The notes beneath the pieces are model-generated. The model had not been told where the DNA came from. It made no database searches and was given only the letters and a program-made list of their open reading frames with translations. Positions 1-58,500 of a stretch of DNA of 64,000 nt are shown here, one piece after another. Origin of the DNA: Trichoplax sp. H2 (lineage: Eukaryota); contig NOWV01000018.1 of the NCBI GenBank assembly GCA_003344405.1, positions 186,001-250,000 of the forward strand. The letters run 5' to 3'. Position 1 is the first letter of the stretch, and each line of letters begins with the position of its first letter. The position numbers were made by a program, and so were the translations under genes.

Positions 1-3
1 TAG

Positions 4-3000
4 ATAAGCTTCACCAACCGACAAGAAATCAAGATTCGCAAGAACTTTTACCTAATTTCAAGGTATGAAATCTTAATCAAATTAAAAGCAAGAATGTAAC
101 ACTAGCACAATACTGTAAATGTTGATTTAAAGTAGTAACTACTACATCAAGTTAAAAATTGTAATAAAATCTTAAAATGCATTATTCAATTTCACACTAT
201 TACTTTACCTGATATTCAATCGTGCAGTATTGTATATTATCAACCCATGTATATCTTTATAGTATATGTTATACGGTATTACTATTAGGGTATGCTTCTT
301 TCATATAGTAACAAAAGACAACGATTATTTATATACTTCCTATATCACTTCTAAATCTATCTAAATTTCTCCTGCAGATTTCCAAGATTGCCAATTGTAC
401 CCAAAAGTCTCAATTAGTCAATTTACTGGTAGTAGCACTTCAAGGTGATTGAACAATTAATGTAATTAACCTCAAGTAACATGAAACTTTCTTCTTTCTA
501 GTATAAAAACAAATTACTTTAATAAATACCTTATTTGCAATCCTTTAATTGTCAAATTTTAGTGAATCCAGCTCACGAAATTCAAACTAAATCAGGCAAA
601 AATGTAAGTTTAAGCAATACACCAAGCTTGCTTTTACAGTTAATGTATTAGCTACATAAATAAAATGCTAATTTTAGGCAGGACAGATGATTTTAATTGG
701 ATCTATGCTAGTTGGTGACCCAACTCAGAGTTATTTTAAGGTGAAAAAATAATGCCGTTAATGCAATATAGCAATTATAATAACTATGACTGCTAAGATT
801 CAAACTTCCTAGGCTTCTTTCTACACTTAGATTACACTCTGGAGACAAAATACTGCATGGCTTGAAAGGATAAGCCTCGGAGATATTCTATTACTTGCAG
901 GTTTAGGATCATATTTCATATCGTAGATGGATAATAAAAACTTTATGTCAAAATCTATTTTTTTCGAACCTTTTGTGATTATAAATACGAGAAAAAAATA
1001 ACAGTCGTCTATACTTGCAATTAATACGGATATCTTTTACATATCCTCACTTGATGTAATACTTCAACCCCTAGATTTAGAAGTCGACGAGTGGCGTGGA
1101 AAATATTTTGCTCAAAGTATTCATTCTTCCTGGGTAGTTAACCTTCATAAATGTAGAGATATAACTGGTAAAAGAGGTTAGCTATCAATTTTTCTAATAT
1201 AAATATTATAAGCTAAAATATCAGTGCTCTTCAGGATAGTACAAACCATTTTTAATACAAATCCTCATATATATCGTAAATTCCTTTTTCCAATACTTAG
1301 TTAGACATTATATTCCATCAAAAACCATGGATGATGTTTACACATGGGCATCGAATTACTTGCCACATATATATAATACAAATGATCAATCAACCTTGCA
1401 AGTACAAAGCAAAGGTAATTCACCCTCGTCACTATAGCTATATATGTGTTTCATCTAGTAATTCTAGTAATATCGTCTACCTGATGTTTTGATATTCAAG
1501 GAGAGGTTCAATTTGTTACTTACAAGAGCTTAACTCAGGACGTTGTAGTTCATTTCAAGGCCAAGTTGCTATCGATCAAATGCTATACTAGTAAATAAAT
1601 AAAAGCACTATTTCTACACGTAATGTAAAAATTAACTCGCTCTTTCTTACCAGTTGTTTTATCTTGTATTAATAATGCACTCTAGTTGGAAATGTTACCT
1701 ATCAGTATGAAACTAAGCGCCTCCCAAAAATGGTTGCTAGTAAGTTGAAAATAGTAATAACAGTTCAAATTTTAATTTCGCTCATATTTTCATTCTCTAT
1801 TTTAGCATTAGCGGAATCATCTGTACAAAGAATTAAACTACAACTGTAAGTGAACGATCTTAAGAAATGTTTATGGTGAATATAAATATATCACTTCATA
1901 TATAACTGTATTGCAGTTGGGGCAGACAGGCTAGATGGTTCTCAGAATTAAGAGCTAATATCAATCGAGTTTGGAAGTGGTCCTTTCTACATGTTCACTA
2001 TGATGAGGTTACAGGTAAACCCTCCGTAGACTATTACTTTAGGATACAATTTTGCGTATGATCATATGAACTGGAGGTTTTAAACTGCTGTTGATTATAT
2101 TACCATTCTTACCATCTTATGTATCCCTTAACTAGATAACTACGTACTTAATACAACTCCAATATCTGAAAAATCTTTATTAGATGATAAGTCTTCCGAA
2201 GCAGTAGATATTAATCGAGTATGTTTCGTTGACCATATTACAAATTTACTATTACCAGTCTAATTTATTTCTTTAATATCTGTTTTAGAAATGTGATAAT
2301 TACGGGCTGGAATTACAGAGCATTAAACAAATGTTATCAATATCACTACAATGTACAATAAAACATTGATATATGTTAATTTATTACGCTTGCTATTTTT
2401 TTGAGAAATTTTTTTATGATAATATATCAAATTCTACATGACTACATGCATTCATTCCATCTATCCGTTTATTTTATGATGCAGCTGTCATTATTTTATC
2501 TGCTAATATCAAACTACTCAGGTAATAATATTGTCATTATTTAAATAAATATGAGTACTAGCTTACGTTGTATTCTATATATGTTCGCTATAACCTAACT
2601 TTATTGTGAATTAATATCGCAGGTTTCAAAATAAAAGTGGAAGATATCGTAATATTTCACTCGAAACAAAAGCTTCGTATGAAGACTTGGTATACGCACT
2701 TATAGATTAATAAATTAATCTGCAACTATTTCTCGTTTCCCCTCCTAATCCATACTAAACTCGTCATTAGAGTAAGCAAATGACAAACTTCACTTACGTG
2801 GGATGTTCACTATGCTCGAAAATGCTACCACAAGTAATGCTTCAGGAGGGATAATCTTTTTTAATTAAATTATAATTATCAAGGCGATGTATTACATTAC
2901 TGCCAATTTCAAATATACTTTCTTTAGGATAAGAATGAAGTTTATAAACAATGTGCGCAATGTATCCGTGAAGAGCAGGGTATACAATAAACTAATTTAT

Positions 3001-3860
3001 TAATAATATATTAAGCTACTCCTGTAATATTAAATGTTTCTATAATAATCATTATATTTATAGCCTTTATCCCTGCAACCATAACTCGGTGCTACCGGTA
3101 ACGCTAACTTGCACTAAATTATTGATTTGCGTTTTAACAATTATCTCTTCATAAACTATATCCAATACTGCATTAGCATACATTTAAAAGTAATATCAGT
3201 AGTGCATTGTATATTTAATTTTTATATTTTTATTTAATAATTGTCCTAGAGATTTATTGTAATCATAATATACGTAATTCTTTGTTTGATCCATATATCT
3301 AGGCCGATAACTATAGTCTTAACAGACGGCCAACAAGATGTTAGTCTAACGGCATCAAATGAAGCAATCGTCAAGGTAAAAAATGTAAAATCATTTCTTT
3401 ATAACAAAAGAGTTCAATCGCGTTTAGTACCATTACATCAGTGTATGTTATATAAATTTATCCTATCTTTATAATAATTTTATTCCGAAAATTTAGTTAT
3501 TCTTGAATGTCCCAGCAAATTCCTTAACCAAACGGCTTCATCCGGAATCAAATATAACGGTATGGCTATAGTAATTTTATATTATGATGTACGAGTATAC
3601 AATCGTATTTGCGGTTAAATAATATAAACTTCGTACCTTTCTATGTAAAGATTAAAAAGTTATAATTTTGCTTATGTAACGCCTTTTAATTACATAATCT
3701 TATACACTTTTAGTATGCAGAGGTAATTGCTGATCTTTGTCGACATATGGTGAAATCATGCAACTCGATGAAATTTCGCATTAATTGCACTGTTACTCAA
3801 GATGATAATGGCTTTATAGTTTCACGGCGATACGAACTACATGACGTTATATCACATTAG
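4..3860 (+). CDS. SHLD2: Shieldin complex subunit 2 (FAM35A)-like OB-fold ssDNA-binding protein, 5'-truncated, ~21 short exons
   Basis: Manual GT-AG splicing gives a continuous frame. Approximate exons: 4-62, 378-444, 563-603, 678-740, 831-900, 1075-~1170, 1301-1413, 1501-1590, 1686-1739, 1807-1845, 1917-2014, 2136-2218, 2289-2352, 2486-2521, 2623-2690, 2771-2833, 2928-2979, 3064-3097, 3303-3375, 3497-3559, 3714-3860 (TAG 3858-3860). Translation includes NCTQKSQLVNLLVVALQVNPAHEIQTKSGKNAG...ITLWRQNTAWLERISLGDILLLAD...LWGRQARWFSEL...VWKWSFLHV...VLNTTP...YVGCSLCSKMLPQDKNEVYKQCAQC...YRPITIVLTDG...LFLNVPA...ITYAEVIADL...DDNG. These blocks are colinear with the vertebrate SHLD2 C-terminus as recalled (VFLWR..AFW..LGDIILLTD, LVLWG..AAW, ELHTTP, YTGCAKC...IYKQCFSC, YRPALMTIADG, ITYGMVVADL, DEN). 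Confidence 0.82.
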
Positions 3861-4091
3861 TAACTTTATAATTCTTAATGTAACTAGCAATAACTAACAT
3901 ATACATTTAATAGTATAATGAATCCGAGTACTTAACCATCTATTACTGAAATTATTATAATGTTATACACTGTATAAACGATATTCAACAGTATGCAAAT
4001 CAAAATATATATACAAGAGTCTCATTATTAAAATGCGACTAAATTTCGTGTATAGTAACCAAATTATTTTGTATATAGTAACCAAAGTAAT

Positions 4092-7000
4092 TTACAATGC
4101 TTTCGATCCAATGGCTAGAATATATAAGCAATAAAAAATTCATTAGCTAGTGATTCTAATATAACTGGTAGTAGAGATTTTGCAATTTATAGTACCTTTC
4201 ACATGGCAAACATCAACATCAATTCCCCAGTTAACAATTCTATCAATCCAGAGTATTTGCTTGGTTGAAAGACGATCGTTCGGCCCTTTTACTTCCGCAA
4301 ACTAATCACGAAAATAGTAACGTGACTATCACCCCATTGAAAGTGCCTAAAATGTAAAAGTACTTACTTTAACTTTTTTCGTCTCTTTATTCCATAAAAC
4401 TAAATCTGGAAGGCCACCTGCTGCAAAGCTCTTAGAAAAACGCTCACATAGATCCGCCAAAATTTCACCACCAAAACATACCGCTAAACTCTACGAATAG
4501 TAGTATTTACTTACTATCGGTTTACAATATTAACTAAATTATGGCAATGTTACTGAAGTTAATATTACTATTATGTGTTTATATTCACCTGAACTTGGGG
4601 TAAACCATTGGGAAATCGTTCCCAGTTAATGCCTACACATATTCTGCCTTCATATCTTGTCCAAGTACTCTTAATCATGTCCTCAATACCCTATAAATAA
4701 TTATTAACAGTGAATGCGCTTTCAATTTTCGTTAATCAATATTTATAATCCTATCGAGCTATCTTACCTGATCATCACTTTCTCTTATTAGTCGTAGCTT
4801 TTCTTCAATTATATCCTTACGGTTCGAATAAAATCCTCCATGCATCAAATCCAAAGGAGCACTCTATAAATGATTATAAACTGGTATTTACTATATCACA
4901 ACTACCTCTTTAATATTAATATTAATCCTACGTGAATTCTAGCAGTTCCCACAAATACCTGAAATGGATGTCGAAAAACATCTGGCACGCCTGGAGTAAA
5001 TAAAATATCCCACATGAGCAACGTGTATAGCGTTGATAATGTCGCACCCTCTGCATGCAAACCATCTGTAAATCCTTCATTATCTAAGTAATGGTATAAA
5101 GCCAATTCCTCAACGGAACAAAGAAAGCTGCAATCTTCACCAGGGCGAATAAATACGGATTTATAACCAGACCCTACTGCCGGGTAAAGACGACCAGTTA
5201 TTGTAATCTGGAAAGTGAGAGAACAGAATTTAATTATTATGGTAAACATTGGTAGGATAAGTTAATGGCCACATTTCAAGATAAGTAATGCATTTTTACT
5301 GATAATATATAAATCGCACATGATTCGCATCTTTCAAGTTGATTTGAGGAATGTCTTGTCTATATATATGAAGTTTCTTATTACTTGGTGAATTACAAAG
5401 TCTAATTCCACGTTGTTGAAGAGCTAGTTTACGTCCTCCTCCAATACATGGATCTACAAGAGCTTCTTTGACGGCATTAAGGCTCTGAGATAAAAGGATT
5501 CAGAGCAAAAATTTGTGAAAAGATTTAACTACTATTCCGTTACAAGGTTTATTATAAATATGAAATCTAACGAATCTGCTGCATTACATACAAGTTCTGG
5601 CTGCTTCAAATGTTGTTCTAGAATTAGAGCTAATCGATCCCACCATTTTCCACGTCGTACGTTACAGAATACTTTCTGTTGTAACAAATATTGCAATTCC
5701 ATGGAAGCTTCCTTGTACATTCGTTTTTTTTCTAATAATCCAATACCCGACGATAAAATCTGGCAGCAAACCCATCCAGGGGTGTATTGCATAAGATAAC
5801 TTGGCAGCTGCCTCCCAATAAAATTCTCATCATTGAGCAAGTCATTGATAATAGACTTGCAATCATCATAAACATCATGATACAACTGTAACGCCGTATC
5901 GACATCTCCTCTAGCAAATGCTTCATTAATATCATAGTACTGTTGTAGCTTGCTATCATATCTAATGAAAATACAAGACATCTTTAGAAAATATACAGAA
6001 AGACTTAATAATCGATATTATGAATGATATTGACTCGCAGGTCCCTTACGTGATAAAATCTTCACGGCATGTAAATACTGGCGTAGGTCGATATATTTCA
6101 TATTCAGGGTATACAAGCCTACCAAAATTTACCATCATCAGTTGCGCCCTATAATGTTGACAAAAGACCATAAAATTAATACTGATACTATTGACCCATA
6201 TCAGTATTACGTACTACCTTATTTAAATTACTTACATTTGAGCATGTCCTCCATTAGCTAAGTCATCGTCATATGTCGCCGACGTAAGAGCAAACAATAA
6301 CGACATACGATTAAAAACACATCGAGGATGCTTCTGTAATCGGATGCACAATCCCAAAACCGATTTCGCTCTACCATTACAAAATGGAAATGTTAATAAC
6401 TCATGTATTCAGTTGCAATGCAGGATTATACCTAAAATAGGAATGCACTGGTAGAAGCATTACCGTTTTATAACACTCCGTGTGATTCCTGATACTCCTT
6501 CCACTTGTTGTCCATATACACCCCTTTGTTGACGACCAAGCTTTTTTAAAGCCTCAATAATATTATTTTTCGATCCAGACTTAACATGGTACATTTTAGC
6601 TAACTTTTTTACTTCTGGGCCAGGTAATAAATTTAAGATATCTTCCATATCGGTCAAGGAGTCGTCTAATTGCAAGAAAATCATTAAATATCAAATTTTA
6701 TTGCTACAGACTAACGAATTCCTTAGAATTAGTACCTACGCAAGAACGGTTGATGCAATTTTTGTTTAAGATCATAAATTCTGTGCACTAATTCTATACC
6801 CTTTAATGTTTAATTTTGTATTGATAACGCATATCTAGTTTAAAGCTAACAGACTGATAGTATAATAACAAAGCTTATTTTTATGTTAATTAGTCCATAA
6901 AATAGCAAAATGAATCCATTAAAAATTTATAGTAGGTAAAATAGTTTGTATGCACGTACTACAAATCATCATTATAAAATTTATTTTACATACCATCTTC

Positions 7001-8653
7001 CACTAAACCAGCATTCCTCAATTGCTCGATGTCACTACTAAGATCTTCCCTGATGTCGGGATATTTCAACTTACTGCATTGGAACCAAGTGTATACGCGT
7101 AAAAATAAACGCACGTATAACTTTTGAGCAGAAACTATAAATCAATTGAAGGACAAGACATGTACGTGCTTGTTAGTAACAAAGGGATGGACTAAATTCG
7201 TGATTGAGCAAAGTTCTTATAAATTTTATTTAAATTGCTATTTGAAAATACCTGATAAATTGTAAAAGCTGTCTACAGCAACTAAATCTTCATCATTAAA
7301 AAGGCAAACATCGTCTTTACAGTTTCGTACTGTCTGGATTATAATGTTAAAGTTACTTAAGTAATACGGCAGGTAAGGCTCTTTTTGAGACGTTTGATGG
7401 GTTTGATCATCGTTTTGTGGAATACCAGCTGGTGCTGAAACAGGTGTAAGTTCTTCCGATTTTTCTACTTTTACCATTGATTGCGGCCCTACATCGATTT
7501 TCTCCTGACTTGCAATTACTACAGCCGTTGACGGGCTTGCACTCTGTATAGAGGATGCAATCTCATTTGTAGATGGCTTTATTACAGTAGGATTAGTTGA
7601 AGTATGACATTCGTCTTGTGCTAATACCTGACAATCTGATTGTTGTATTTTATTCTCCTCCAAGCATACCTGGTTATTTTGACGAGGGCTACTGTTAGAC
7701 ATATCGCTTTGATTACTATATTTTACCTTAGGCTTCATATTCTCTTCCCGAATCGTATTAGTTCTACCACCTCTACCTTTAATGTCAACACCCTTATGGT
7801 TAGCTTTATCTTTAGTAATAACAGATCTACTTGAATCGACTGTTAACGATGGACTTGTGTTCTGTATAGTTGATGTAATCTCATTCGTAGGCGGTGTTAT
7901 CACGATAGAGCTAGTAGAAGTATGATGATCGTCTTGTACTAATACCTGGCAATCTAACTGTTGCGTTTTATCCCCCTCTAAGGATGTTGTGCTGTCTTGC
8001 AACAGGGTTTTATTAGCCATATCGTCATGATTACTGTGTTTACCCTTATATGTTGCTTTAGTCCTATCATCTTTACCTTTAGCGTTAGTAACGCGACGAG
8101 TAATTTTGCTTTTAGCACTAATAGATCTCCTCGAATCAATTGTTGATGACGGACTTGTACATTCCATAAGTGATAAATTCTCCATTCTCGATGATCTCGT
8201 CACCATAAGATCAGTAGAAGTATGACATTTGTCTTTTGCTAACTCCTGATAATCGAATCGCTGCGTGTTATCCTTCTGCAAGCATGCTTGGCTACTCTCA
8301 CAATTAGCTCCATTATCCTGATCGTTATGTTTTAACTTATTCTCTTTCAAAATCGCTTTTGTTTTGTCATCTTTGCCTTGAATGTTAGTAGATCGATTTA
8401 CAGCTTTACCTTTCCTATTGGCAGATACCACTGCATCATCAGTCAGCTGATGATTTTGATGTTTATCAAAATACTTGCTAATTTTAGCCTGTACACGACT
8501 TACAACCGATGCTTGAGCAGGTGAAGGATCTGCAGGTAAATCTTCCTCTGTCAAGTCAATGACCACAACTGATTTATTACTTTCAGATTCTTCATATTTC
8601 CTCTTCCTTTCTTGTTTTAGTTTCAGGCTTAATCGAGTTGAAATTGCCGCCAT
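4092..8653 (-). CDS. FAN1: Fanconi-associated nuclease 1 (SAP, TPR, VRR-NUC domains), ~13 exons
   Basis: Conserved motifs PYYLSNF, QKLYVRLFLR, RRGKWWDRLAL, CSVEELALYHY..GLHAEG, LLMWDILF..VFRHPFQ, GGLPDLVLW and FAEVKGPNDRLSTKQ (PD-(D/E)xK nuclease). The last mini-exon encodes AIGSKAL* with the stop at 4092-4094. Probable ATG at 8653 (MAAISTRLSLK); an alternative in-frame ATG lies at 8704. Exon 1 is ~1.4 kb (8653-7252). Confidence 0.95.
7520..8430 (-). repeat. Three degenerate ~300-bp (~100-aa) coding tandem repeats in FAN1 exon 1
   Basis: Recurrent (Q/K)G(K/R)(DD/GG)xT...QxxDxQxLxxDxxHTST...(T/A)SPS units. The DNA anchor gtatgacattcgtcttgtgctaatacctg and its variants occur near 7603, 7920 and 8220. 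Confidence 0.9.
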
Positions 8654-8705
8654 TGATTGCCAGGTTGATTGCCAAGTGCAGCCTTCGATTTGGTGCGCAG
8701 TCATG

Positions 8706-8832
8706 GTACCGTACAGTACGGTACAGTGTACAGTGTACAGTGTACAGTACTATAGACAAATTGGGCATACTGTACAGTACTGTACAGTACACTGTACAGT
8801 ATACTGTAGTATTGTACAGTACAAATGGTACG
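8706..8832. promoter_or_regulatory. TACAG/CTGTA palindromic repeat array in the FAN1/PPCDC divergent promoter
   Basis: (TACAGTG)n run plus a perfect 22-bp palindrome TACTGTACAGTACTGTACAGTA at 8768-8789, inside the ~460-bp head-to-head gap. Promoter function is inferred from position. Confidence 0.7.
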
Positions 8833-9111
8833 TATGGTCGCATACTTATCTATGGCAATAGAGGTACGCAAACAGGACAATTATGCACGTTAATATCATA
8901 CATTTTCTGAAGGGCTGCGATAATGGTATAAATCTCCAAGGAGAGCAGGATCTTGCCGGATGAATGAGGTAGCAAAGGATCGCCCTGTAATGGCTACTAT
9001 GCTAAATAACTCCAGGATAGTCTTCGATAGAACTGATTTACAACAGGAATCGATAATTTCGTCCTATTTGCTAGCCCCTGTACTATCATAGGAACGGAAC
9101 AGCTCTTTGAG

Positions 9112-16323: not shown

Positions 16324-18804
16324 ATGAGGTTAATAACGTCTCTGATTTTTGGCATTATCGCCTTGTCCTTTACCTCAGCTCAACGTAAGTAAAATAAAAT
16401 GGTTAAAACTACTTCCATCATTGTATCTCTAGCAATAATGGCGATCAGTTTTTGTAAAATATCTATCATTTTATTTTTAGCATTCTTAATTCCCAGACTG
16501 TTATTAATCATTCTATAGCGAATTACAGGTTTTATACTATCGAGAAGTAATTATCTACATTCACCTATAACGATGATATGAAGCTCATTTTTTCTATCTC
16601 TATTTTGTAAAATGTAGTAATCAGTAAGCTCGATTAATGTCCAGAAACGCCTCTTACCTAGCCCTTATGATAAATAAATAAATGCTCGTTTTGAAAAATC
16701 CTCGTTGCAAAGTCATTTTCTTTTAGGGCTTAATTCTTGCCATCGCGTATAATACATTATATTGACAAAAAAATAGTACTATAGAATGTGTCCTTAAATA
16801 TTACCGTTCTATTTTATAATGAATAGTTCCACATTGATTTTTCGTGACCTGATTGATCAATTTCGTAAATGCAACTTGTTCAGTTACTCGATAGACTACT
16901 CCGTAAATAATTCATTAAAAAATATCTGTGTTCTTCCGATGTTCTATCATTTACAGATACTAAAATACCTAACTCTCAAACCATTTTCATATAATTTTGA
17001 CATCAAGTGTCTAAAAAACAGCTACAAGATAAATGGTTTGTCGAAGGTCAAGCTCGTATGAACGGATATTCGAAAACTAAACTGTTAGACACAGGCGGAA
17101 AGAGGGTTATTTTAGCCATTGGCGATGGAATGAGTCTAACAACTGTGACTACAGCTCGAATCTTGCAAGGACAACAAAAAGGTAAAACTGGCGAGGAGGA
17201 GCAACTAAGCTGGGAAAAATTTCCATTTACTGGATTATCCAAGACGTACAACGTTGACTACCAAGTAGGAGATGTGATCATTTCAGAACTTTATAACAGG
17301 CTATTACTCCTTTCTAAATTTATAATTTTATAGCAGTAACTATTTCTATGTATCCTGCAATATCTTACACTACACGACTTGTACTTTAAACCGTCTAATT
17401 CAGTTCAAATGAAAGCTTAATTTATCCAAGTTACCCCTTCAGGCTAAAAGTTTCTTGAAAATTTTGTAGCGTATCTTGTAACATCGATTCATCTGGGCTA
17501 GTAGTCGTTGGACTGGACCTTTAAAAAGTTCTAATCTATTTATCATTTAGGTTCCAGATTCTGCAGGAACAGCGACAGCATTCTTATGTGGCGTTAAAAC
17601 TGATGCTGGTATAATCGGTTTAGATGAAAATTCAGTGCGTGGTGATTGTGCCGCTTCAAAAGGTACTGAAGTAGGATCAATTTTAAAATTGGCAAAACAA
17701 GCTGGGTTATCCGTCGGAATTGTAGTTACAGCTCGGATTACTCATGCTACGCCATCATCGTCCTATGCTCATTGCCCAGAACGTAATTGGGAAGGATCCG
17801 TGCCATCTCTCGCAGAACAACAAGGTTGCATTGATATTGCACAACAATTCATTAACTTTCAAAAAGAACATGGCGGTATCAGTGTTGCCTTAGGCGGAGG
17901 TAGAAGAAATTTTATTCCTAACACTCAAAATGATGTTGAATATCCTAACACCAAAGGCAGACGTGTCGATGGCAAAGATTTAATCCAAGAATGGAAAAAT
18001 CTGCAATTACAAAATTCAGCTTACGTATGGAATTTATCTGATTTTAATGCAATCGATCCTAAAAAAACGGACCATCTCTTTGGACTTTTTGAACCCAGTC
18101 ATATGCAGTATGAATCGGCTAGGAATAAAGGCCCTAGTGGTGAACCTTCAATATCAGAAATGACAAGGAAAGCTATCCAAATATTAGAAAGAAATCCCAA
18201 GGGTTACTTTCTATTAATTGAAAGTGGTCGAATTGATCATGGACACCATGAAGGCAGCGCTTATAAAGCTCTTACTGAAGCAGTAGCTCTGGCTCAAGCC
18301 GTTGAAACAGCAGATAAATTGACAAACGAAAATGAAACATTAATTATAGTTACATCTGATCATGGACATACTATGTCTATGAGCGGATATCCTAAACGTG
18401 GTAATCCTATTTTTGGCTTAACTGGAGCACTGGGTAACTATGGTAAACCATCCTTAACTCTCAATTATGCCAACGGTCCAGGCGCATGGAAAGATGGCGA
18501 TCCACGACCTAACTTAACAGGCGTCGATACCGCTCATCCTAAATTTTTACAACAAGCAATCACTAAACTAAATTCTGAAACACACGATGGAACTGATGTA
18601 GCTATCTACGCTAGAGGTCCATTTTCTCATCTTTACGTTGGCGTTGTCGAACAAAACTATATCTTTCATCCTATGGCTAAAGCATTATGCTTAGATCCAT
18701 CCAAAGCTGGACAACAAACATGTTCTAATTCAGCTCATGGGGTAAATGTCAGCATCTTGGCTTTATTGACTACATTAATGGCGATCGTATTACAGTTTAT
18801 TTGA
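16324..18804 (+). CDS. Alkaline phosphatase paralog 1 (signal peptide, predicted GPI anchor); exons 16324-16384, 17008-17264, 17551-18804
   Basis: Signal peptide MRLITSLIFGIIALSFTSAQ; IGDGM, VPDSAGTA (catalytic Ser), THATP, RNWE, ESGRIDHGHH, TSDH, ETHDG; C-terminal hydrophobic tail. Confidence 0.96.
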
Positions 18805-25183: not shown

Positions 25184-28100
25184 ATGAAATCTCTCATAGG
25201 AGTAGCAATACTCTTCATGTTATTAGCGATTGCTAATGCCCAAGGTATGTAATAAATAGTAAGAAAATGGAGAAAAGCTATTCCGAAATGGAAATAAAAT
25301 TGTGATGTCAATTTCACAATAGTATCGTATAAGCATGTAGTAATCGCTTGAATCTATTTTATAACCCTTGCTTATCGACCATGTTTCAAGTTTCACAGAG
25401 GAATAACTGGTTTCATTTTACTTTAATAATTTATAAATAGACAAAATACTTGAAAATATTAGCCTCGATTACAGTAAAAAGAATAGTTTCTATGTTAACT
25501 GTATTTCTAGTAACTCGTGTAAATTTTCTCTTTTTAATTCCTTGACTGATATTTCGCTAATAAAATTTGAAGGGCGGTAAATTATTCAGCATATAGAGAT
25601 TTTATAATTATACTCTTTATCTTTACTACCCATCAAATTGCTATTTAGATACTAAAACTCAGGTTAACAATCCATGGTTTACCGAGGGCATCAAAATGTT
25701 AGAAGAGAAATTGAATTACAAACCTATCAAGAAAGCAGGCAATAGTGTAATTTTGTTTATAGGAGATGGAATGAGCTTAACAACAGTTACAGCGGCAAGG
25801 ATATATCAAGGTCAACGCGATGGTAAGTCTGGTGAAGAAGGACAATTGAGTTGGGAACATTATCCACATACCGGATTAGCTAAAACATATAACATCGATT
25901 ATCAGGTAAGGCTACAGCTATTCTACGCATCGATTTGTTGATAAATTTCCATTTTATGCTTATATTCTACGCTAAAATGACTGTAAGAGAACAATATACG
26001 ATAGCCTATTCCTTCCTTCAATTGAAATCTCAATTATATCATCCATTCGTTAGTACTGTAATTAAGGTTTTTCCCCCTATTTTGCTACCTAGTCTAGCAT
26101 GACGTTGTACACGCAGCTATTTCGCCTTTAAAATTTAAAAAATTTTTATTAGATAGAAATAAAAATAGACGTCGTTTTTTCCTCTTTCACATTTTTAAAA
26201 TTATTTAAATACTTAGGCAGGATTTTATGATATCGCACTATCTTCATGATTGACCACCGATACATTAGCATTGCTTCAAAGTCGGCATATGCATAAAGTA
26301 AACTATATCAGTATTTATTTTACTTTAAAAATCAGGCCACTCCTTTTAGAGCATCCTATGGCTATTCCAGTACTCAAGCGTATCTCAATGATGTCTAGAT
26401 TTACTCCATCATACAGTTACTTTCTGCTGATATAACCTTGCATATTCTCACCTTGATCAATATTTATTGTTCTACTAAGATACCAATATCACATGATATA
26501 CATTATATTGTACAATATAAAAACTAAAAATTATTTACGTTACGGCGCTAGCATTAGGCCATAAATCATGATAAACAAAGTCAGACTACGCCATGAGGGT
26601 ATAAATTTTACACAAGTCGAAAGTATTACTAACCTACGTATTAATTTAAAATACTACTTTAAAGCCAGGAGATTAATTTAGCTAGCTAAATATTTTACGT
26701 CTATTTCAATCCTTCGCGAGCTAATACTATTAATAGCTTTAAGCTAAGCTAGACTATATCATCATGATGAAGATTTTGCAAAAGACAAAAGTACTACTAT
26801 AGTACCTATTAATTCACAATACTACTTTAAAGCAATCGGATTAATTTAACTTGCTACTTATTTACGTCTATTTCAATCCCTTGCGAGCTAAGTTAAACTA
26901 CCCTGTGGTGATCTAAATTTCATGTAAGACTAGAGTATTAACCTGCTAAAATATTTCATTGACATAAAACCACTGTTTACTAGAAAGGATAGTAGAATAA
27001 TTTAATTCATTAGACACTTTGTTTGGCATTAATTAATTATATATTGCAAATGTATCCTTTCAAGCAATTTCTATGTAGTAAATGTTATAGTAGCATCCTA
27101 ATTATCGTATCGTAAAGTGATTTTTTTATATAAGTATGTCGATGAGAGAAAATATGAGCTCCAATTTATCTATTCGATATCATAATAGTGTTGATATTTC
27201 TCCTTTACCAGTAACTTAATTTATAAATGCATTCTCTTCAAATTTTGGCATAATACTTCAAATTAGTAATACTAAAAAATTTTCAATTTTACTGTAAATC
27301 CATTCTTAGGTTCCCGATTCTGCGGGGACTGCTACCGCATATCTATGTGGAGTAAAAACCAATAAAGGGCTAGTTGGTGTTACAGAAAAGGCTAAACGAG
27401 GCAACTGTCCTTCTGCAAAAGGAACTGATGTTTATTCAATCCTAACTTTAGCTCAGAAAGCTGGTTTATCGGTTGGTGTAGTATCTACAGCACGTATAAC
27501 CCATGCAACACCTGCAGTGACTTATGCTCATACACCAGAACGAGAATGGGAAGGTAGTGTTCCAGCAGAAGTAGCATCAGAAGGTTGTATCGATGTTGCA
27601 CAACAGTATATCAATTATCAGCGAGAACATGGCGGTGTTAATGTCATGTTGGGTGGAGGAAGAAGATATTTTATGTCTGAGTCCCAAAGTGATGTAGAAT
27701 ATTCAGACTTGAAAGGTCGTCGTAAGGATGGTAAAAATTTGCTTGATGAATGGAAAAAATTAAATCTACCTAATTCACACTATATATGGAATACATCAGC
27801 ATTTAATGCTGTTGATCCAATGAAAACTGATTACCTGTTTGGATTATTTGAATATGGGCATATGCAATATGAAGTTAATCGAAATAAAGGACCTGGTGGC
27901 GAACCTTCTATTGCTGAAATGACTAGGAAAGCTATCCAAATATTACGGAGAAATCCTAAAGGTTACTTCTTAATGGTCGAAGCTGGTAGGATTGATCATG
28001 GCCATCATGAAGGTAGTGCATACAGAGCACTGGTTGAAACAGTTGCTATGGCGGATGCTGTTGATGTGGCTAACAAAATGACCAATCCTAATGAAACATT

Positions 28101-28566
28101 AGTCGTAGTTACAGCCGATCATGGCCACACTATGTCTATGGGAGGCTATCAGAAACGTGGTAATCCAATATTTGGCTTAACTGATGATTTAGATATCTAC
28201 GGTAATAAATATTTAACGCTGAATTACGCTAACGGACCTGGCGGTTGGGATGAAAGGAAGCCAAGACCTCGATTGACTAATGAAATGACAAAAGATCCCC
28301 ATTTCTTACAGCAAGCAGTAGCTAAGTTAGTCAAGGAAACTCACGATGGTACTGATGTTGCTGTCTATGCTAAAGGTCCCTTTGCGCACTTATATGCTGG
28401 TGTATGGGAACAAAGCTTTGTAGTCCAACCAATGATGAAAGCATTATGTTTAGATGCATCTAAACCAGGTCAACAGCATTGCAAGAATTCCGCTGGAGGT
28501 ATTGCTCCCGCTGCCATGCTAACGTTGGTAATGGCTCTATTCGTAACATTCTTTCAAAATTTTTAA
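25184..28566 (+). CDS. Alkaline phosphatase paralog 2; exons 25184-25244, 25649-25905, 27310-28566
   Basis: Signal peptide MKSLIGVAILFMLLAIANAQ; IGDGM, VPDSAGTA, THATP, EAGRIDHGHH, TADH, ETHDG; GPI-type tail. Intron positions match paralog 1. Confidence 0.96.
26620..26892. repeat. Two-copy ~105-bp direct repeat (period ~169 bp) in ALP2 intron 2
   Basis: aaagta.tacta...tattaatt.a.aatactactttaaagc...gattaattta.ct.gcta...tttacgtctatttcaatcc.t.gcgagctaa occurs twice. Confidence 0.85.
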
Positions 28567-37200: not shown

Positions 37201-40200
37201 GATATCTGTCTAATACTAGGATAGGTGAAGTAGCCGGATTATGGGCACAATAAGTGAATTAAAATTTAGCTAGTAGGTGCTAATACGGTTGATAGATAAA
37301 AAAGGAGTAATGAAGTTGTTGAACACTTGAATAGTTGTTGTTCCCATCATTATTCTCAAGAATATGGCTACATACCTTGGATTTAATTTGTGAAAATATA
37401 AAAGGCGTAGTCGTATAATTAATGACTTTGCTCTTATTGGAAAGAATTTATAACTGGATGCTAGCAGTAGCGATCATTGTGCTCATTCCTTGATACTTTT
37501 GATGCATTTTGAATGAGCGATATTAAAAATTTTTTACTAGCCGTTATTTTAATAGCAGACGTTAACACAATAGGAATATTAGAAGAAAATAACGTTTAAA
37601 ATGAGTAATTTTGGGTATCGGTAGTTTTCTTTTGATCGCTTTAAATAGTTGCTCAAAATTTTAATTATAATAATTATTCTACAGAAAAGTATTTTATGCC
37701 AGGTGTTGCTGTAACGATAGTCGTTGTTCTTCTTACAGACGCTATCTAATTAATAAATTATAACTTTTAGTAAATCAACGTCTAATTTATTAATAGTCAA
37801 ATTCAGTGCCGGTATGCAACTCTATTCTTACGCTTTTATGAGACAATATCTCTGGTTATCATCTCGTAGACTGTGATAAATTCTTTGTAAAAAGTTACTC
37901 TTCACATTTCTCTTCATGATAGCCATTGCTGGAGGATATATAAAGAGTATGAACAGTTACAGGTGTATTATTGCGATATTTTGGAGAATTCTACTTTTGA
38001 TTTCTTCAATAGCTAGTATGAGATCCTTCTTAGATTAAAGTCTTGATAGCAAATCCGTTTTATGTATTATGGCTCCAAATTTTGAAATTAGATGAAATTG
38101 TCATTTCATACTTTTCCCAGAGGATTGAAATATCCTTGAATAGATAGCGTAAACTCTATCCTAATTACTTCTATTCAAATTTGCTTAAGGCTGGTGCAAG
38201 CTACCTTTTTATATCCCAGATATATATCGGGCTAATTAGTCTATACTCCTATATATCGAGATATATTATGATAGAAAATAGTTATTCTTGTACTTTGTGT
38301 GTCGATGTAACTTGAAATCAAGCTATACGAAGTGAAAAGTTGCGTAAACGTAACTCCATAAATTGCACTATTTTTTAGCAATTGCTGTGGGCTGGTATTT
38401 TATAATACTACACAGATTTTTGAATAATTTCTGCATGTAAACAGTAAATTCTAACCTAATTACTCTATTTCAAATGTTTTATACAACAAGAAAGTCGTTT
38501 ATATCTTATTACATACTTTAAATGCGGCAGCATCACATAACAATTTCGTGTGTTGTGTGCACAGATCGCATGTAAGGAATCCTTATAATTAGAGCTCTTC
38601 TGTAAAATAAGGCATTTCAATTACTAAAAAATGACTTGTTGAACGATATTATGATCCTAATTAGTATAATATTGAATTATATCTATAACGAATACGTTAT
38701 ATTACGGCTTTGACGGCTTAAATCACTTTGAATGATTTACTAATTAAAGGAAATATTGCTGTATCGGAGACAGTATTTGCCATTTGCCCTATCATTTTTG
38801 AAAATAATTCTGATTTGGATCGCTAATTTCTACAGTCTATCGAACTTACTACTCCAGAATGGGTTCTGTCTGAAGTTTCAGTATATATGGCATGACTTGT
38901 AACTGTACTAAATTGTTTTCTTGCATCATAATGCTTTAATTTTTGTAATTTTTAATAGGTACCTGACTCAGCTGCTACTGCTACAGCGTTTTTAAGTGGT
39001 GTTAAAACAAATGATGGTGTTCTTGGCTTAAATCAGAATGGTATTAAAGGCCAATGCGCATCGGAAAAAAATAATCATGTCAATTCGTTAGTTGCTATAG
39101 CTGAAGAGCTCGGTATGTCGACTGGAATTATTACCACTGCTCGAGTAACTCATGCAACACCTGGTGCTGCTTATTCACATTGCGCTAGTCGTAATTGGGA
39201 AGCCAACGTAAGTTTATGGTATATCTCCAATTATCGCTAACCACTGTTTACCATACTGTAGGTCGGATTAATGAAAAGACTTTACAGCTCATGGTGTTCT
39301 TTTTCTCTTGATACTTACACTTGTATACTTATATACAGTAGGAATATTTAATCTTGATATAAAAATGAATAAAATACCGATCTGCATATAAGGATATTTA
39401 ACGTACACACATTGCGATTTTCTTATATTTAACATGTTGTCATTATAATTTTTTTCAAACTTTTTCTAGATTCCTTCAAGTCAAGCTGGTCTGGGCTGTA
39501 AGGATATTGCGACGCAATTACTTGATGCGTATAATATTGGCGATGGTTTTGAAGTGGTTATGGGTGGTGGAAGGTGTAATTTCCACTCTATTAACACTAC
39601 CGATCCTGAATATACTACATCCAAAGGGTGTCGATTCGATGGAAAAGATTTAATACAAGAATGGAAGAATAAAAAATTATCCAATTCGGCTTATGTTTGG
39701 AACTTGACCGCATTCAACGCTATTGACCCTAACAAAACCGATCATCTTTTAGGCTTATTCGATCCTAGCCACATGAAATATGATGCTGATCGACTTACCG
39801 ATAAAGCTGGTGAGCCATCCATTGCTCAAATGACGGAAAAAGCTATCCAAATTTTGCAAAGAAATCCCAAAGGATACTTTCTTTTTGTCGAAGGTGGTCG
39901 TATTGATCATTCACACCATTCCGGAGTAGCTTATGGCGCTATTACTGATACAATTGCTATGGCTGATGCTGTTCAAAAAGCTGTCGCCATGACTAATCCA
40001 CAAGAGACATTAATTGTAGTTACAGCTGACCATGGGCATACCTTAAGTATGAGCGGCTATCCGAAAAGGGGCAATCCTATTTTAGGTCTTGTTGATGGAG
40101 CGCCATCACTTGATGGCAAGCCATATACAACGATAAACTATGCTAATGGCCCTGGGGCTATAAAAGATGGCGAACTACGCCCTAATCTGACTGGAGTTGA

Positions 40201-40489
40201 TGTTCAAGCTCGATTACATGAGCAACAGGCAATCTTCCCTATAATTTATGAAACTCATGATGGTGCTGATGTTGGTATTTATTCACAAGGGCCATTCGCT
40301 CATTTATTAACTGGTGTAGTCGAACAAAGTTACATATTTCACGCTATGAAGCATGCTCTATGCTTAGGTCCAAACTCCAATGTTCCTAATTGCCAACGAT
40401 TTGTGACGCGTGGAAGTGCTGTTTCTTCTGTTGCTAGTAATATGTTATTGCTAGTTATCATGCTTTGCTTGGTGAAGTTCCTGCAGTAA
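34286..40489 (+). CDS. Alkaline phosphatase paralog 3; exons 34286-34358, 35211-35467, 38959-39207, 39470-40489
   Basis: Signal peptide MVMSTMSMAHFLLILASLSWVSSQ (start Met ambiguous); IGDGM, VPDSAATA, THATP, RNWE, EGGRIDHSHH, TADH, ETHDG; GPI-type tail. Confidence 0.95.
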
Positions 40490-52500: not shown

Positions 52501-55500
52501 ATATTATTAGTAGTAGTAAGGTTATCCTGTATTAAGTATATCTATCTTCTGTTGTAGTGATGATGAACATATCACATCTCTGTCTGAGTTCAGAGTTCAA
52601 AAGATAACAAATAGATATCCGGTTAGTATAAATTTCTCCTAATATCTTACCATTATTCAGTTTTTGCTATTCACAATTACTGAGGAGGTTAATATTGAGG
52701 CATATACATTGGTTATATTTAATTCTGCTAGGATCCGACTTCTCGCTTATTTTGCTTAACCGAAACCTGTATTATTGAACGAGATCCAGCAACTTATAAT
52801 ATTGTTACATGTCGGCCATTTGGCGATATTTATGCTTTAATCCGTTATTCTGACAATCCGCAAAAGTTTGCTGTAGAATATATTCGTGGTCAAATAAGAA
52901 AATATTATTCTACCGAAAGGTGATAAGCTACTATAAATATTTTATTTTCGTAGAAAGTTTACAGTTATATAATATATCATATTTTACACCATCTAGAGAT
53001 TCGCTTCTCGCAAGTGTTTTAGATGGAGCTAGAGCTGGTGGCAATTCTGAAGTTTGTGTTAAAATGCTCGAAACAAAGAGAGGATTAAGATTTGGACCAT
53101 TTCATTCTCCAGTAGATGAAGATATAGAAAGCTTACTTCTGAAATGGCTACAAACTCCGCCAAGTATGCAAAATAATGTATTCTTTGGTGGAGAACGTAA
53201 ATCTTTATATATTAATGTGAATATCATAATGTATATATCTCGTAGGCTCTGGTATCAGTGAGGCTATCGAACGTTTTAATGCCAACATATCATACAGCGG
53301 ATTATTGTATGCTGTAACGCAAGAAGTAAGTAAAATCTCAAAGTACTCACCTTAATTTCAGGGGTGCCTGTAATTGTTAATATTTAACTTAAATTTTATA
53401 GGGATTATTTGCTGAAAATAAAGAAAAGCTCATAAATGGAGCTCTTATTGCTTTCTTACTAAATGAGCGTAAGTTAAAAACCAACGGGTAGAGTAATTAC
53501 GTTATACTATACATATCTAATAGTTGTGTCACTGATGTAATTTTACAATATATGCATTAGGAAGCCATGATACTTTGTCGAATGATGAAATTGAAGCTCA
53601 GTTTCATGTCTTACGTCGCATAGTTGCATCAAAAATTGGATTTCAAGCATTTACTACATTACCTAGGTATTTATTTCCTGGCTTTAACCTAAAACGTTGC
53701 TTAATGCGGTACCATAATTGTTGAGATTTCAAACTTATACTTACACTGACTGAATTACTCGTAAAAATCACATTCTTCTATTAGTTTCCGTGAAAAAATT
53801 GGTGGCAAGATACTAAAATCCCTTAAAAGAAACAACGATGGAATTTCTCATGCTGCTATTGATATGTTATGTGCTTTAATGCAGGTAATGGTTTATAATT
53901 GAATAACAATCTATATCGAAATTTATAAAACTAAAACTGAAATACTTATATTTTAGCCTATGCATGCAAATTACGATCTCCGTCAAGAGCAGCTGAATAA
54001 ATCATCATTATTATCGTCTTCTTCTTTCGTGGAAAATTTGTTGAAACTACTAGCTAGCCACGTTGTATGTCCATTAGATATCAAGTACTTTGTAAACGTT
54101 GCTATGACAATTCACTAAAGCGTCCGTTTTGATTTAGGATCGCGGAACTGGAGCACTGGTCGTTAGTGCGTTACTAGATTTTATAACTTTCGCATTATGT
54201 GCTCCTTACAGGTGATATACGAGACAACAATACCTGATTTAAAATTTTATTTCTCATTACATCGCACTGTAGCTATAATTTCGTTGTGTAGTGATATATA
54301 AGCATTTACTAATTGATCTTTTTCATATGGACTTATGCGTAGTGAAACTACTGATGGAGCACAATTTGATACAGTATTGGAATTGGTAGCTGACCTCGGA
54401 AGATCATTCTTTAGATTATTTGAGGTAACCTATTACATTCGTAACGGAATAATATGTTTTTCGCTAGTTGTGATATTGAAAAAAACTTGTTTTTGTAGCA
54501 TCCTTCCCTTGCAATTCTGAAAGCTGCTGGGCTGATAATGAAGTCATTAATTGAGGTAAATAGGTTATATGAAAATATTTAATATAATCAAACCCTGGAT
54601 ATTGTACTTTAGTACCATGATGCAAATATTTCTGTCATCGTTAAATAGGAAGGCAATGAAGAAGTATCAACGAGACTCCAGGAACTAGCATTATCGGAAG
54701 GGGCTCTTCCCCGACATGTACATATTGCTATGTTTACAAGTAGTACGGACGGTAGAATGTTGACTTTAAGGTATAACTTGTATAGCATTGTAGTGTGATG
54801 GTAGTTCTTTTTGGTATGCGTTGTATTCAAGGCATACTAATAATTATACTTATTTAAAACTTTCGATAGGCAATTGAGTCGGCATCTTGTAAGCTTATGG
54901 ACTGAAGGAAATCCCAAAGCCATGGAACTATTTGGTAGAATACTGGTAAGCCATGAAAATGCCAGCATTGATTCATAATTATATTATCAAAACAGATAGA
55001 TTTATTAAATTACTAAAAATTAAAGTTAAGTAACTGGGCTTGATCGTAAATTCATTCATCACTCATACATAAATATTTAATTATTTCAATTATTAATTGA
55101 AAAATTTTATTTTATGTTAAACTAACCGTTATTTTCATATTATTCATATAGCCCGCTGGCTTAGTAGCATATCTAGAATCTTCTGATGTTGCTCCGGATG
55201 ACGATATTGATCGTATGCACGTCCGTGATAATATGAAGCTCGCTAAGGTTCATTATTGATTTAAAGTGAAGTGTGTGCACTGTATTCTAAGAAGTAGGTG
55301 GCAAGTTGTGAACATTTCTAAGTAATTTAGTTTATAATATTTACTAGGTCGCATCATCGAAAAATAAAAAAAGTTTACAGCGGCAACAGATTGAGGCGCT
55401 GCTTATACATTGGAAAACACGTCTTGGAAGGCAGAAACCAGAGGTAGACTGATTATTATAAATATCGTATCGCTATCTTAGCATTTCAGTACCGTGAATT

Positions 55501-58500
55501 TGTAGGTACATGGGTCAATAGTATTATATCAACTAAGAGTTCCTGTATTATTTTGATTAGCCAACTACTAACAGACCAGTAGTTTTACGAAAGCGTCGTC
55601 AAAGATTGAAAGTAGAATTAAACTGGCAGTATTTCTTTTACAAGTATGTAAAAGTTTAAATAAATTATCATTTCCTTTTGTCATCTTGGAGTTAACGTAA
55701 TAGAGGTTACAACTTACTTTATTAAACAGATTTTATGAAGACCACTCTAATGCTTGGTTAATATGGAATTACAAGGTTATATAAGATGACAATGTCGTAA
55801 ATCCTGAAATCTGTGTTTTGTACTCAGTGGGTTGTATTCCTTATTTTTAGACTAGGGAAGAATTAAGAGAAGCCTTAGAAATGGAGATGAGACTTTTCAT
55901 GCAAGATCGGGTGCGTTCGAACTTTAATTCTGTACTTGGTTTTACGTTCAGTTGTGTCAGTGACGTCTAATAATGTATTGGTAACTCATAGGAGCTCAGT
56001 CAAAAACAGATAATTTCTTGGAATCATGTTGAATTTGAAGTTCGCTATGAGAGCCTGTCTGAGGAAATCAAAATAGGTTAACAGAATTGAGTTACTTATA
56101 TTATCAGTATGTGGGAGTAGACAGTCTAACGTACTCATTATTCATGGCTTGAAATATTTTTATGTATTTAGGCGATTACTACCTTCGATTATTGCTGGAA
56201 GATGACGAATCTGTTCTTATTAAACAATCGTGAGTATACATCTTTAATAATACTGCTGTTACTTTTAACATTGATGAATTGTAAATATCTGAAGTACCAA
56301 TAAGCGTTCTTATCTTAATATAATTTCAGATATCAATTTTTTAATGACCTGTACCATCGATTCTTGCTATCCCCTAAACCACAAATGAAAGCATTATGCT
56401 TACAGGTAAGGATTTATCCAAGACAGTATAGGCATTATAATTGCCATGGCAGCTCTAAAAGTAGAGTAACTCTATTGAATCGAATAGTGTAATGTATTAA
56501 TTTAGTGATAACTATTGCTCTTTTTGGACATAGGCAATGGCAATTGTGTATGGAAAATGTTATGAAGAAATTGGTGTTTTCAATGATACGAGATATATTG
56601 TGAAAATGATAGAAAGGGTGAAGCTTTAAATAGATTTTTTTAGTTCGTGGTGTCTTGCTTTAATCAAATATTTATATCTTTTGATAGACTATCGACAAGC
56701 TAGAAAGAGACCGTTTACTATTTTTTGTCCATAAGCTTATTAATAGAAGAGTAAGATTGGATAATAGTATCGCCATTATTGTTCATTGTATATTGTATAT
56801 TGTCCTATGAGTCTTCAACACCATATTAACAGAAATATTTTATGTAGGAAAATGTTAAGGCTATAATGGATGCTAATGGAGTTAGAATTTTTGTTGATTT
56901 ACTTACTTTATCACATCTGCATGTTACAAGGGCAACCGTACCACTACAGGTACGACGTATAATTAAACTTTTCGTGAACTTATAACAATGCTGCAATGCG
57001 ATATTATATATTAACTCGATTCTTATTTTCGTTCGAAATATCATTAGACGAACGTCATTGAGGCTGCTCCAGATATGGCTAGAGATACAGAGAAGGAGTG
57101 GTACTATGGAAATGCGGACAAAGAAAGATTAGGACCTTTCAGTTTTAAAGAGGTATAGCACTGCATACTGTATACGTATATGTATCAAATCTAATGTAAT
57201 ATATATTAGATACAGCGTTCATCATATGTATTTTAAAATGCTTTAGATGAGAGAATTTTGGGCCAGTGACGTTTTGAGACCCACTACCCGTTGTTGGGCT
57301 CAAGGGATGGATGGATGGCGACCATTACATAGCATACCCCAGCTTAAATGGTGCTTAATGGCGACTGGTACGGCTGTAATGAATGAAACGGATATGGCTG
57401 TCTTAATTCTTAATATACTTAACAAAATGTGTGAATACTACCCTAACAAGTAAGTCTCCTTATGAGATAATGCTGTTTTCTATTCGTCCATTTACCAGAA
57501 TGAAACTACTATTATAGGGACGAAGATGGAGCAATTGTTCGTCCTATGCCTAGAATCAAGCGAATGCTAAGCGATCAGACTTGTTTGCCCCACCTTGTAC
57601 AACTATTCTTAACATTTGATCCTATTATTGTTGAAAAAACAGCCCTATTACTTCATTCTATCGTCATGGACAATCCAATCCTTCCGCGCTTATATTTATC
57701 TGGGGCTTTCTTTTTTATTATGATGTATACTGGGTCTAATGTTCTACCAATTGGTAAATTTCTTGTGGATACGCATAACAAGCAGGCATTTCGCTCAGAT
57801 GAGGAGCAACAAGCATCTGATGTTGTAAATCGTAGTATACTTAGTCAAATGTTACCAGAAGCTATGGTTTGTTATATTGAAAATTATGGCGCAAATAAAT
57901 TTGCCGAAGTATTTCTCGGCGAATTTGATACACCTGAAACTATTTGGAATACAGAAATGAGGCGAATGATGATTGAAAAACTTGCATCCCACTTGGCAGA
58001 CTTTACTCCCCGATTGCTTAGCAATACTAGGGCACTTTATCAGTATTGTCCTCTTCCAAGGCTTACATATCCGCAGCTGGAGAATGAACTATTCTGTAAT
58101 ATTTACTATCTCAGAGCTCTTTGCGACATTGCTAGATTTCCAGATTGGCCTATTAAGGATCCCATCAAACTTCTTAAAGATGTTCTAATGGAATGGAAAA
58201 AGGAAGTTGAAAAGAAAGGCTCGTCAATGTCAAGTGAGGAAGCATACAAAATTCTGGGATTAGAAACTGGTGTAGGCGGCCATGAAGAATCTAAAGTTCG
58301 TAAAGCCTATTTCAAATTAGCGCAGAAATATCACCCTGATAAAAATCCTGAAGGAAGAGAAATGTTCGAAACTATCAATAAGGCTTATGAGTTTTTAGGC
58401 AGCAAATCTGAGAAAAAGACCGACGGTCCGGACCCTAATAATATTGTCTTAGTCTTGAGGACTCAATCAATTTTATATTCAAGATATAAAGAGGATTTGG

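Follow-up and report, generated by a model that had tools for sequence, protein, structure and literature searches.

In the DNA analysed here, positions 4-3860 on the plus strand are assigned with high confidence to the gene for SHLD2 (FAM35A), the single-stranded DNA (ssDNA)-binding subunit of shieldin, in Trichoplax sp. H2; they cover the 3' two-thirds of this orthologue. The window, that is, the whole stretch that was analysed, comprises 64,000 nucleotides (nt) of the H2 genome (assembly GCA_003344405.1, contig NOWV01000018.1, positions 186,001 to 250,000 of the forward strand). The gene is intact, spliced and expressed. The translation of its last exon, 48 amino acids (aa), found one match in the protein database, at 100%, namely RDD45147.1, 'Protein FAM35A [Trichoplax sp. 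H2]', a protein of 706 aa that comes with four precomputed Pfam domains, SHLD2 domains among them. Given this identity, the window is placozoan DNA, and a deposit of the gene already existed, under FAM35A, the former name of SHLD2. An earlier reading of the DNA made from its letters only (the sequence-only reading) had proposed a non-vertebrate host, which was correct. The window encodes residues 205-706 of the deposited protein, and residues 1-204 are encoded upstream of it.

Membership in the SHLD2 family rests on sequence, and the Pfam models argue for it. In our own Pfam scan of RDD45147.1, for which matches were listed to E≤1, three SHLD2 models scored above their cut-offs: SHLD2_OB1 (PF21669; 137.2 bits, cut-off 26, E 3.8e-40, positions 4-137 of the 138 in the profile), SHLD2_C (PF15793; 90.9 bits, cut-off 27, E 8e-26) and OB_SHLD2_2nd (PF22779; 34.8 bits, cut-off 27, E 1.7e-8, profile positions 2-81 of 82). 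REPA_OB_2 also passed (29.6 bits, cut-off 27, E 6.9e-7), on the same stretch as SHLD2_OB1. No further Pfam family was matched at E≤1, and REPA_OB_2 was the only one of the RPA families found; RPA70 would also match Rep-A_N and Rep_fac-A_C. Single exons give a colinear picture, as exons 2, 5 and 6 each match a part of SHLD2_OB1 (profile positions 9-29, 65-86 and 93-119), and matches to the second OB model are likewise in order. The proposal that this gene encodes a homologue of SHLD2/FAM35A that has three OB folds is thus borne out by the profile check against the SHLD2 models, all three of which were passed, and the structure model described below agrees with it.

A word-based protein search with residues 225-706 returned the two Trichoplax proteins only; an exhaustive phmmer search against 1.84 billion representatives reached other phyla, with 155 matches at E≤1e-3, of which 83 reached E≤1e-10 and 21 reached E≤1e-30. 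When 30 clusters of homologues were looked up, 21 carried a functional name, which was SHLD2 or FAM35A in every case, and the other nine carried none; RPA1, MEIOB, CTC1, POT1 and SPIDR were not among the functional names of these 30 clusters. The best match outside the placozoans was 'shieldin complex subunit 2' of Nematostella vectensis (XP_032235417.2, E 2.3e-53), and 'shieldin complex subunit 2-like' of Ptychodera flava (XP_070542300.1, E 5.3e-45) was sixth-best. Both share the three Pfam domains and the N-terminal motif of the Trichoplax protein, although they belong to other phyla and are only ~25-28% identical to it. Named clusters also came from lampreys, a shark, teleosts, lungfish, several frogs, caecilians, a newt, a bird, bats and a tree shrew. 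In an alignment of 58 sequences, SHLD2_OB1 was matched by 53, SHLD2_C by 40 and the second OB model by 39.

The protein has three tandem OB folds, the third of which contains a zinc ribbon, arranged as in RPA70 DBD-A/B/C and in vertebrate SHLD2. The ribbon is of the form CxxC-x14-CxxC, with CSLC at 2804-2815 and CAQC at 2952-2963; hence, the zinc finger noted in the sequence-only reading is present with both of its cysteine pairs as claimed, but the spacer is 14 residues long and not 13. The cysteines and the x14 spacing are kept in all 13 displayed sequences, from Trichoplax to mammals, and Y.GC..C is kept in 12 of them. An AlphaFold2 model built from the 58-sequence alignment had a mean predicted local distance difference test (pLDDT) score of 73.5. 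Residues 234-706, mostly with pLDDT >90, form three beta-barrels and connecting helices in this model, and values <50 at residues 20-38, 49-87 and 107-223 indicate N-terminal disorder. The predicted fold is an RPA70-like triple OB, and a passage of PMC6003645 gives the same prediction for human FAM35A. In a Foldseek comparison with the PDB, RPA70 chains ranked first (9pd4_N, 2.8e-19; 4gop_C, 6.5e-19), followed by Oxytricha TEBP-alpha, CTC1, RADX and POT1. The comparison of structure models called for in the earlier reading thus yielded three confident OB folds, with RPA70 as the closest solved match. No SHLD2 OB-fold structure was found in the PDB copy by sequence and profile searches: a single-sequence search returned weak archaeal SSB matches only (E about 0.1), and the family profile returned 6kto_D, which is human SHLD2(1-52), at 3.2e-6, plus weak archaeal SSB/RPA matches.

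With vertebrate SHLD2 (human Q86V20; FAM35A/RINN2, as named in PMC6003645), the Trichoplax protein shares its order of domains, three OB folds in a row behind a disordered N-terminal part, as well as a CxxC-x14-CxxC zinc ribbon in the last of them and matches to all three SHLD2 Pfam models; it also appears to share an hhhFxx[AP]P motif, a putative strand at residues 7-14 with a W-basic motif behind it. The Trichoplax protein differs in its length of ~700 aa, compared with 835-904 aa given for the human protein in a passage of PMC6003645, and is shorter because its disordered region is shorter.

The exon chain was rebuilt from the raw sequence and its three-frame translation, with one donor mended by RNA contigs. 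It consists of 21 exons of 34-147 nt and 20 introns of 66-315 nt, all of the latter bounded by GT..AG. Over its 1482 nt, the spliced chain reads through 493 codons with no stop until TAG at 3858-3860; the unspliced forward frames of the first 3.9 kb contain 86, 92 and 97 stops and no long open reading frame (ORF). The G+C content is 36.5% in exons versus 26.0% in introns, in a window that is AT-rich throughout (G+C 29-40% per 2-kb step). Public runs were searched with window positions 1-4000, and contigs of four runs (X8, X12, X7 and X4) were aligned; since these are contigs rather than raw reads, they document presence and junctions and give neither strand nor level. Spliced contigs were present in X8 (recorded as RNA), X12 and X7, three runs that belong to three studies. 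Those of X4 were short and unspliced, with no joints, and uninformative on expression. Fifteen of the 20 joints were listed, all GT..AG and all matching exon borders of the sequence-based chain. One X12 contig of 3465 nt carries the exon chain, and the record distances between its listed pieces agree with exons 9-10 (94 nt) and 13-18, which were not listed. The translation supported by RNA equals the deposited protein minus one insert of 9 aa. The chain of micro-exons in one open frame, as described in the sequence-only reading, is therefore real, with RNA joints from three runs at its borders.

In the N-terminal part encoded upstream of the window, residues 7-14 of the Trichoplax protein read ILIFCNPP, at the same position as the hHhFxGAP motif in 13 vertebrate N-termini. 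The counterparts are VIVFCNPP in a second placozoan fragment, ILVFLPPP in Nematostella and LLLFMGPP in Ptychodera, and a W-basic motif lies behind the strand motif in all four invertebrate proteins and in most vertebrates. According to a passage of PMC7181697, residues Val7, Ile9, Phe10 and Trp11 of the human SHLD2 strand contact O-REV7 and SHLD3, and a second strand is located at ~Ile39-Tyr43. The pattern [ILV].[ILV]F..[AP]P was defined post hoc, after the sequences had been seen; in this form, shuffling the Trichoplax N-terminus produced it in 2 of 20,000 cases, and it arose twice per 92,358 positions in stored protein bodies; of 59 representatives with 550 aa or more, 33 have it within the first 45 residues. 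A profile made from the 13 vertebrate N-termini gave a different answer for Trichoplax, with 4.3 bits, reached by 48 of 1000 shuffles, whereas it scored 10.6 bits on Ptychodera, which was reached by 1 of 1000 shuffles. The putative N-terminal docking strand is likely conserved. Within residues 76-107, the motifs S..Y[LI][DEN]..F and EF....T.SQ (an SQ site) align from Trichoplax to mammals; they form a helix in the AlphaFold2 model, in which the block at 91-100 averages a pLDDT of 83.

Shieldin has been studied almost only in mammals, in connection with antibody class switching and with PARP-inhibitor resistance of BRCA1-deficient tumours. As its ssDNA-binding subunit, human SHLD2 binds the 3' ssDNA tail at a resected break through its OB array. 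By analogy, the Trichoplax OB array would bind the 3' ssDNA tails that resection leaves at double-strand breaks, and the disordered N-terminus would dock to REV7, plus SHLD3 if that protein exists here, via the putative beta-strand at residues 7-14. Resection would thereby be limited, or fill-in and end joining would be favoured. Class switching is ruled out as a role, since the placozoan host has no antibodies, and the function in such an animal would be general end protection and genome maintenance. Given that the placozoan protein appears to keep the OB array, the docking strand, the W-basic motif and two further motifs including the SQ site, we lean slightly towards the view that the last common animal ancestor, long before antibodies, already protected DNA ends with a module of REV7 and SHLD2 whose recruitment was regulated. 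If so, the ancestral job of shieldin could be tested in a simple animal, and the absence of FAM35A from invertebrates that has been stated in print would be contradicted.

Several points weigh against the assignment to SHLD2 and the function proposed for it. Identity of the Trichoplax protein to vertebrate SHLD2 is only ~22-28%. The fold comparison cannot tell SHLD2 from RPA70, because the PDB holds no SHLD2 OB structure. Both ssDNA binding and REV7 docking would follow from homology only. The vertebrate-only profile of 13 N-termini scored just 4.3 bits on the Trichoplax N-terminus, a value reached by 48 of 1000 shuffles, so that conservation of this region rests on a short post hoc motif, and a phmmer search of the PDB with residues 1-60 found nothing at E≤10. 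For the REV7/SHLD3-binding segment that the sequence-only reading proposed to look for upstream, ILIFCNPP is a candidate, which was recovered neither by the vertebrate profile nor by this PDB search. A tentative alternative, which we consider possible though doubtful, is that the SHLD2-family protein of Trichoplax acts without a full shieldin, alone or with REV7 only, as a binder of ssDNA ends that, for example, brings ends to CST-Pol alpha, SHLD1 and SHLD3 being later vertebrate additions. Such an arrangement would suit the poor recognition of the N-terminus by the vertebrate-only profile, the short disordered N-terminal part (~225 aa, compared with ~420 aa in human in a passage of PMC6003645) and a passage of PMC11616998 in which shieldin subunits are described as missing in many eukaryotes. 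It accords less well with the beta-1 motif, placed at residues 7-14 as in human SHLD2, with the W-basic motif kept in Trichoplax, Nematostella and Ptychodera, and with the two more short motifs of the disordered region that align with vertebrates.

That the gene encodes some other RPA70-like triple-OB protein, such as an RPA1 paralogue, RADX, MEIOB, CTC1, POT1 or SPIDR, is very improbable. RPA70 (RPA1) is the best structural match, its DBD-A/B/C are also a triple OB with the zinc ribbon in the last OB, and the Foldseek ranks below it are taken by TEBP-alpha, CTC1, RADX and POT1; moreover, REPA_OB_2 passes its cut-off on the first OB, albeit weakly (29.6 versus 27 bits), and by sequence the sole OB matches in the PDB are archaeal SSB/RPA chains. 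However, matches to the RPA70 fold are expected even for a true SHLD2, given the content of the PDB, and the sequence profiles clearly favour SHLD2, whose specific models score much higher (137, 91 and 35 bits). The protein has no RPA-specific Pfam domain besides REPA_OB_2 and no other family at E≤1, and the names RPA1, RADX, MEIOB, CTC1, POT1 and SPIDR are found on none of the 21 functionally named clusters. The N-terminus of RPA70 is the OB-F domain, whereas that of the Trichoplax protein is predicted to be disordered, with a putative REV7-type docking motif. Even less credible is a decaying or mis-assembled gene with a splice chain that is an annotation artefact. The two deposited models do conflict, and the donor of exon 13 is weak, but the 493 spliced codons contain 0 stops against 86-97 per unspliced frame, the junctions appear in RNA contigs from three studies, the H2 and T. 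adhaerens proteins are ~99% identical over shared exons, and the fold is predicted with high confidence. This explanation was rejected on account of the RNA junctions and the stop-free spliced frame, and orthology to SHLD2 is retained.

The SHLD2 family predates vertebrates and adaptive immunity, as the sequence-only reading had anticipated; an intact, expressed homologue is present in a placozoan. The literature gives a different impression. A passage of a 2018 paper (PMC6003645) states that FAM35A is absent from invertebrates, which is contradicted by databases that name SHLD2 in a cnidarian and a hemichordate and FAM35A in a placozoan. Similarly, a passage of a 2024 paper (PMC11616998), citing a review (Setiaputra and Durocher 2019), describes shieldin orthologues as absent from yeast, fly, worm, zebrafish and frog, against database-named SHLD2 in lampreys, teleosts and several frogs. 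No printed report of an invertebrate SHLD2 was among the matches listed in literature searches, supplements aside. Terms of evolution do not occur in PMC11753365, SHLD2 occurs in the reference list only of PMC6396423, and the passages of PMC8529158 that were available are silent on shieldin orthologues. Beyond animals, a protein of the Mortierellomycete fungus Actinomortierella ambigua is named 'Shieldin complex subunit 2' and passes SHLD2_OB1 only, and several other proteins of 1000-1270 aa also pass this model alone. A homologue in the choanoflagellate Didymoeca costata has no functional name and only a weak REPA_OB_2 match. The family may be older than animals, as these sequences suggest.

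The gene is therefore sound but already catalogued. The sequence-only reading presented it as hidden; it had in fact been deposited as 'Protein FAM35A', and RefSeq names SHLD2 in Nematostella vectensis and Ptychodera flava. Novelty falls, since that reading had itself set catalogued invertebrate SHLD2 orthologues as the case in which it would. What sets it apart is only that databases and literature disagree: the gene is a clean, RNA-supported example of an ssDNA-binding subunit that predates adaptive immunity, which corrects a textbook impression and is not a discovery.

The suspicion that the gene might be overlooked or broken up in annotation was in part justified. The orthologous gene of the sister strain T. 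adhaerens, TRIADDRAFT_54129, encodes a protein of 601 aa that is ~99% identical to that of H2 across shared exons and is annotated as 'uncharacterized protein' with no functional name; its model differs in that it misses exon 8, exon 16 (with the first CxxC) and the last exon. Conversely, RDD45147.1 includes a 27-nt exon at 263-289 on the plus strand (YMLYGITIR), which is missing from TRIADDRAFT_54129 and was found in no RNA contig of the four runs; position 62 is spliced straight to 378 in contigs of three of them. This exon is probably outside the main transcript. For curators of gene models, the 27-nt exon without RNA support in H2 and the three exons missing from the T. adhaerens model, one of which encodes half of the zinc ribbon, deserve attention.

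The first exon of the window, which is internal in the gene, lies at 4-62 on the plus strand, as do all those that follow (60/59 nt; residues 205-224 of the deposited protein; RNA joint 62→378). Its start is most likely position 4, behind an AG at 2-3, because position 2 is where the RNA contigs run out of the window, and its first codon is shared with an exon further upstream. The first OB fold starts in exon 2 (378-444, 67 nt; RNA joint 444→563), which is followed by exons 3 (563-603, 41 nt; RNA joint 603→678) and 4 (678-740, 63 nt). Exon 4 was placed by sequence; the 15 listed joints do not include 740→831, and a piece of the X12 contig begins at 829. Exon 5 (831-900, 70 nt; RNA joint 900→1075) contains the core of the first OB fold (ITLWRQ...) and by itself matches SHLD2_OB1 at 2.1e-5. 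Exon 6 occupies 1075-1176 (102 nt; RNA joint 1176→1301); a donor at 1167 in the first model was dropped, as the RNA contigs and the deposited model both use 1176. The end of the first OB fold and the linker helices are encoded by exon 7 (1301-1414, 114 nt; RNA joint 1414→1501).

Exon 8 (1501-1590, 90 nt; contig piece 1498-1590), one of those absent from the T. adhaerens model, starts the second OB fold. Exons 9 (1686-1739, 54 nt) and 10 (1806-1845, 40 nt) together equal the 94 record letters between contig pieces, and exon 10 was placed by sequence and by these record distances. The core of the second OB fold (LWGRQARW...) lies in exon 11 (1917-2014, 98 nt; contig piece 1917-2012), which by itself matches OB_SHLD2_2nd at 0.014. 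Exons 12 (2136-2218, 83 nt; RNA joint 2218→2289) and 13 (2289-2352, 64 nt; RNA joint 2352→2485) follow, the latter with the weak donor GTACAA. The third OB fold and SHLD2_C start in exon 14 (2485-2521, 37 nt; RNA joint 2521→2623), and exon 15 (2623-2689, 67 nt; RNA joint 2689→2771) leads to the two exons of the zinc ribbon, exon 16 with the first pair (2771-2833, 63 nt; RNA joint 2833→2928), again absent from the T. adhaerens model, and exon 17 with the second (2928-2979, 52 nt; RNA joint 2979→3064). The shortest exon, 18 (3064-3097, 34 nt; RNA joint 3097→3303), is followed by exons 19 (3303-3375, 73 nt; RNA joint 3375→3497) and 20 (3497-3559, 63 nt; RNA joint 3559→3714). The last coding exon (3714-3860, 147 nt; contig pieces 3713-4000) comprises 48 codons and the stop, and the 3' untranslated region runs on beyond position 4000. 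Three single-base differences separate contigs from window: at 3346, all four runs have A in place of C, and at 3481 and 3803 some runs have C in place of T; these are probably strain differences.

The convergent neighbour of SHLD2 is the gene for FAN1 (Fanconi-associated nuclease 1), located at 4100-9000 on the minus strand, with ORFs at 5532-6014 and 7238-8746 and a TPR domain (1.7e-29); two genes for DNA repair thus face each other with their 3' ends. The X12 RNA contig extends ~1.1 kb beyond position 4000, and the 3' ends of SHLD2 and FAN1 may overlap, or an unstranded assembly may have merged both transcripts. Further along on the plus strand are three tandem alkaline phosphatase genes at 17001-18801, 25597-28563 and 39470-40486 (Alk_phosphatase, 6.7e-118, 1.2e-113 and 8.5e-82, respectively), the first two each with a small upstream exon, and a gene of the RME-8/DNAJC13 type at 52854-58775, also on the plus strand, with RME-8_N (4.3e-19) and DnaJ (4.9e-15) domains.

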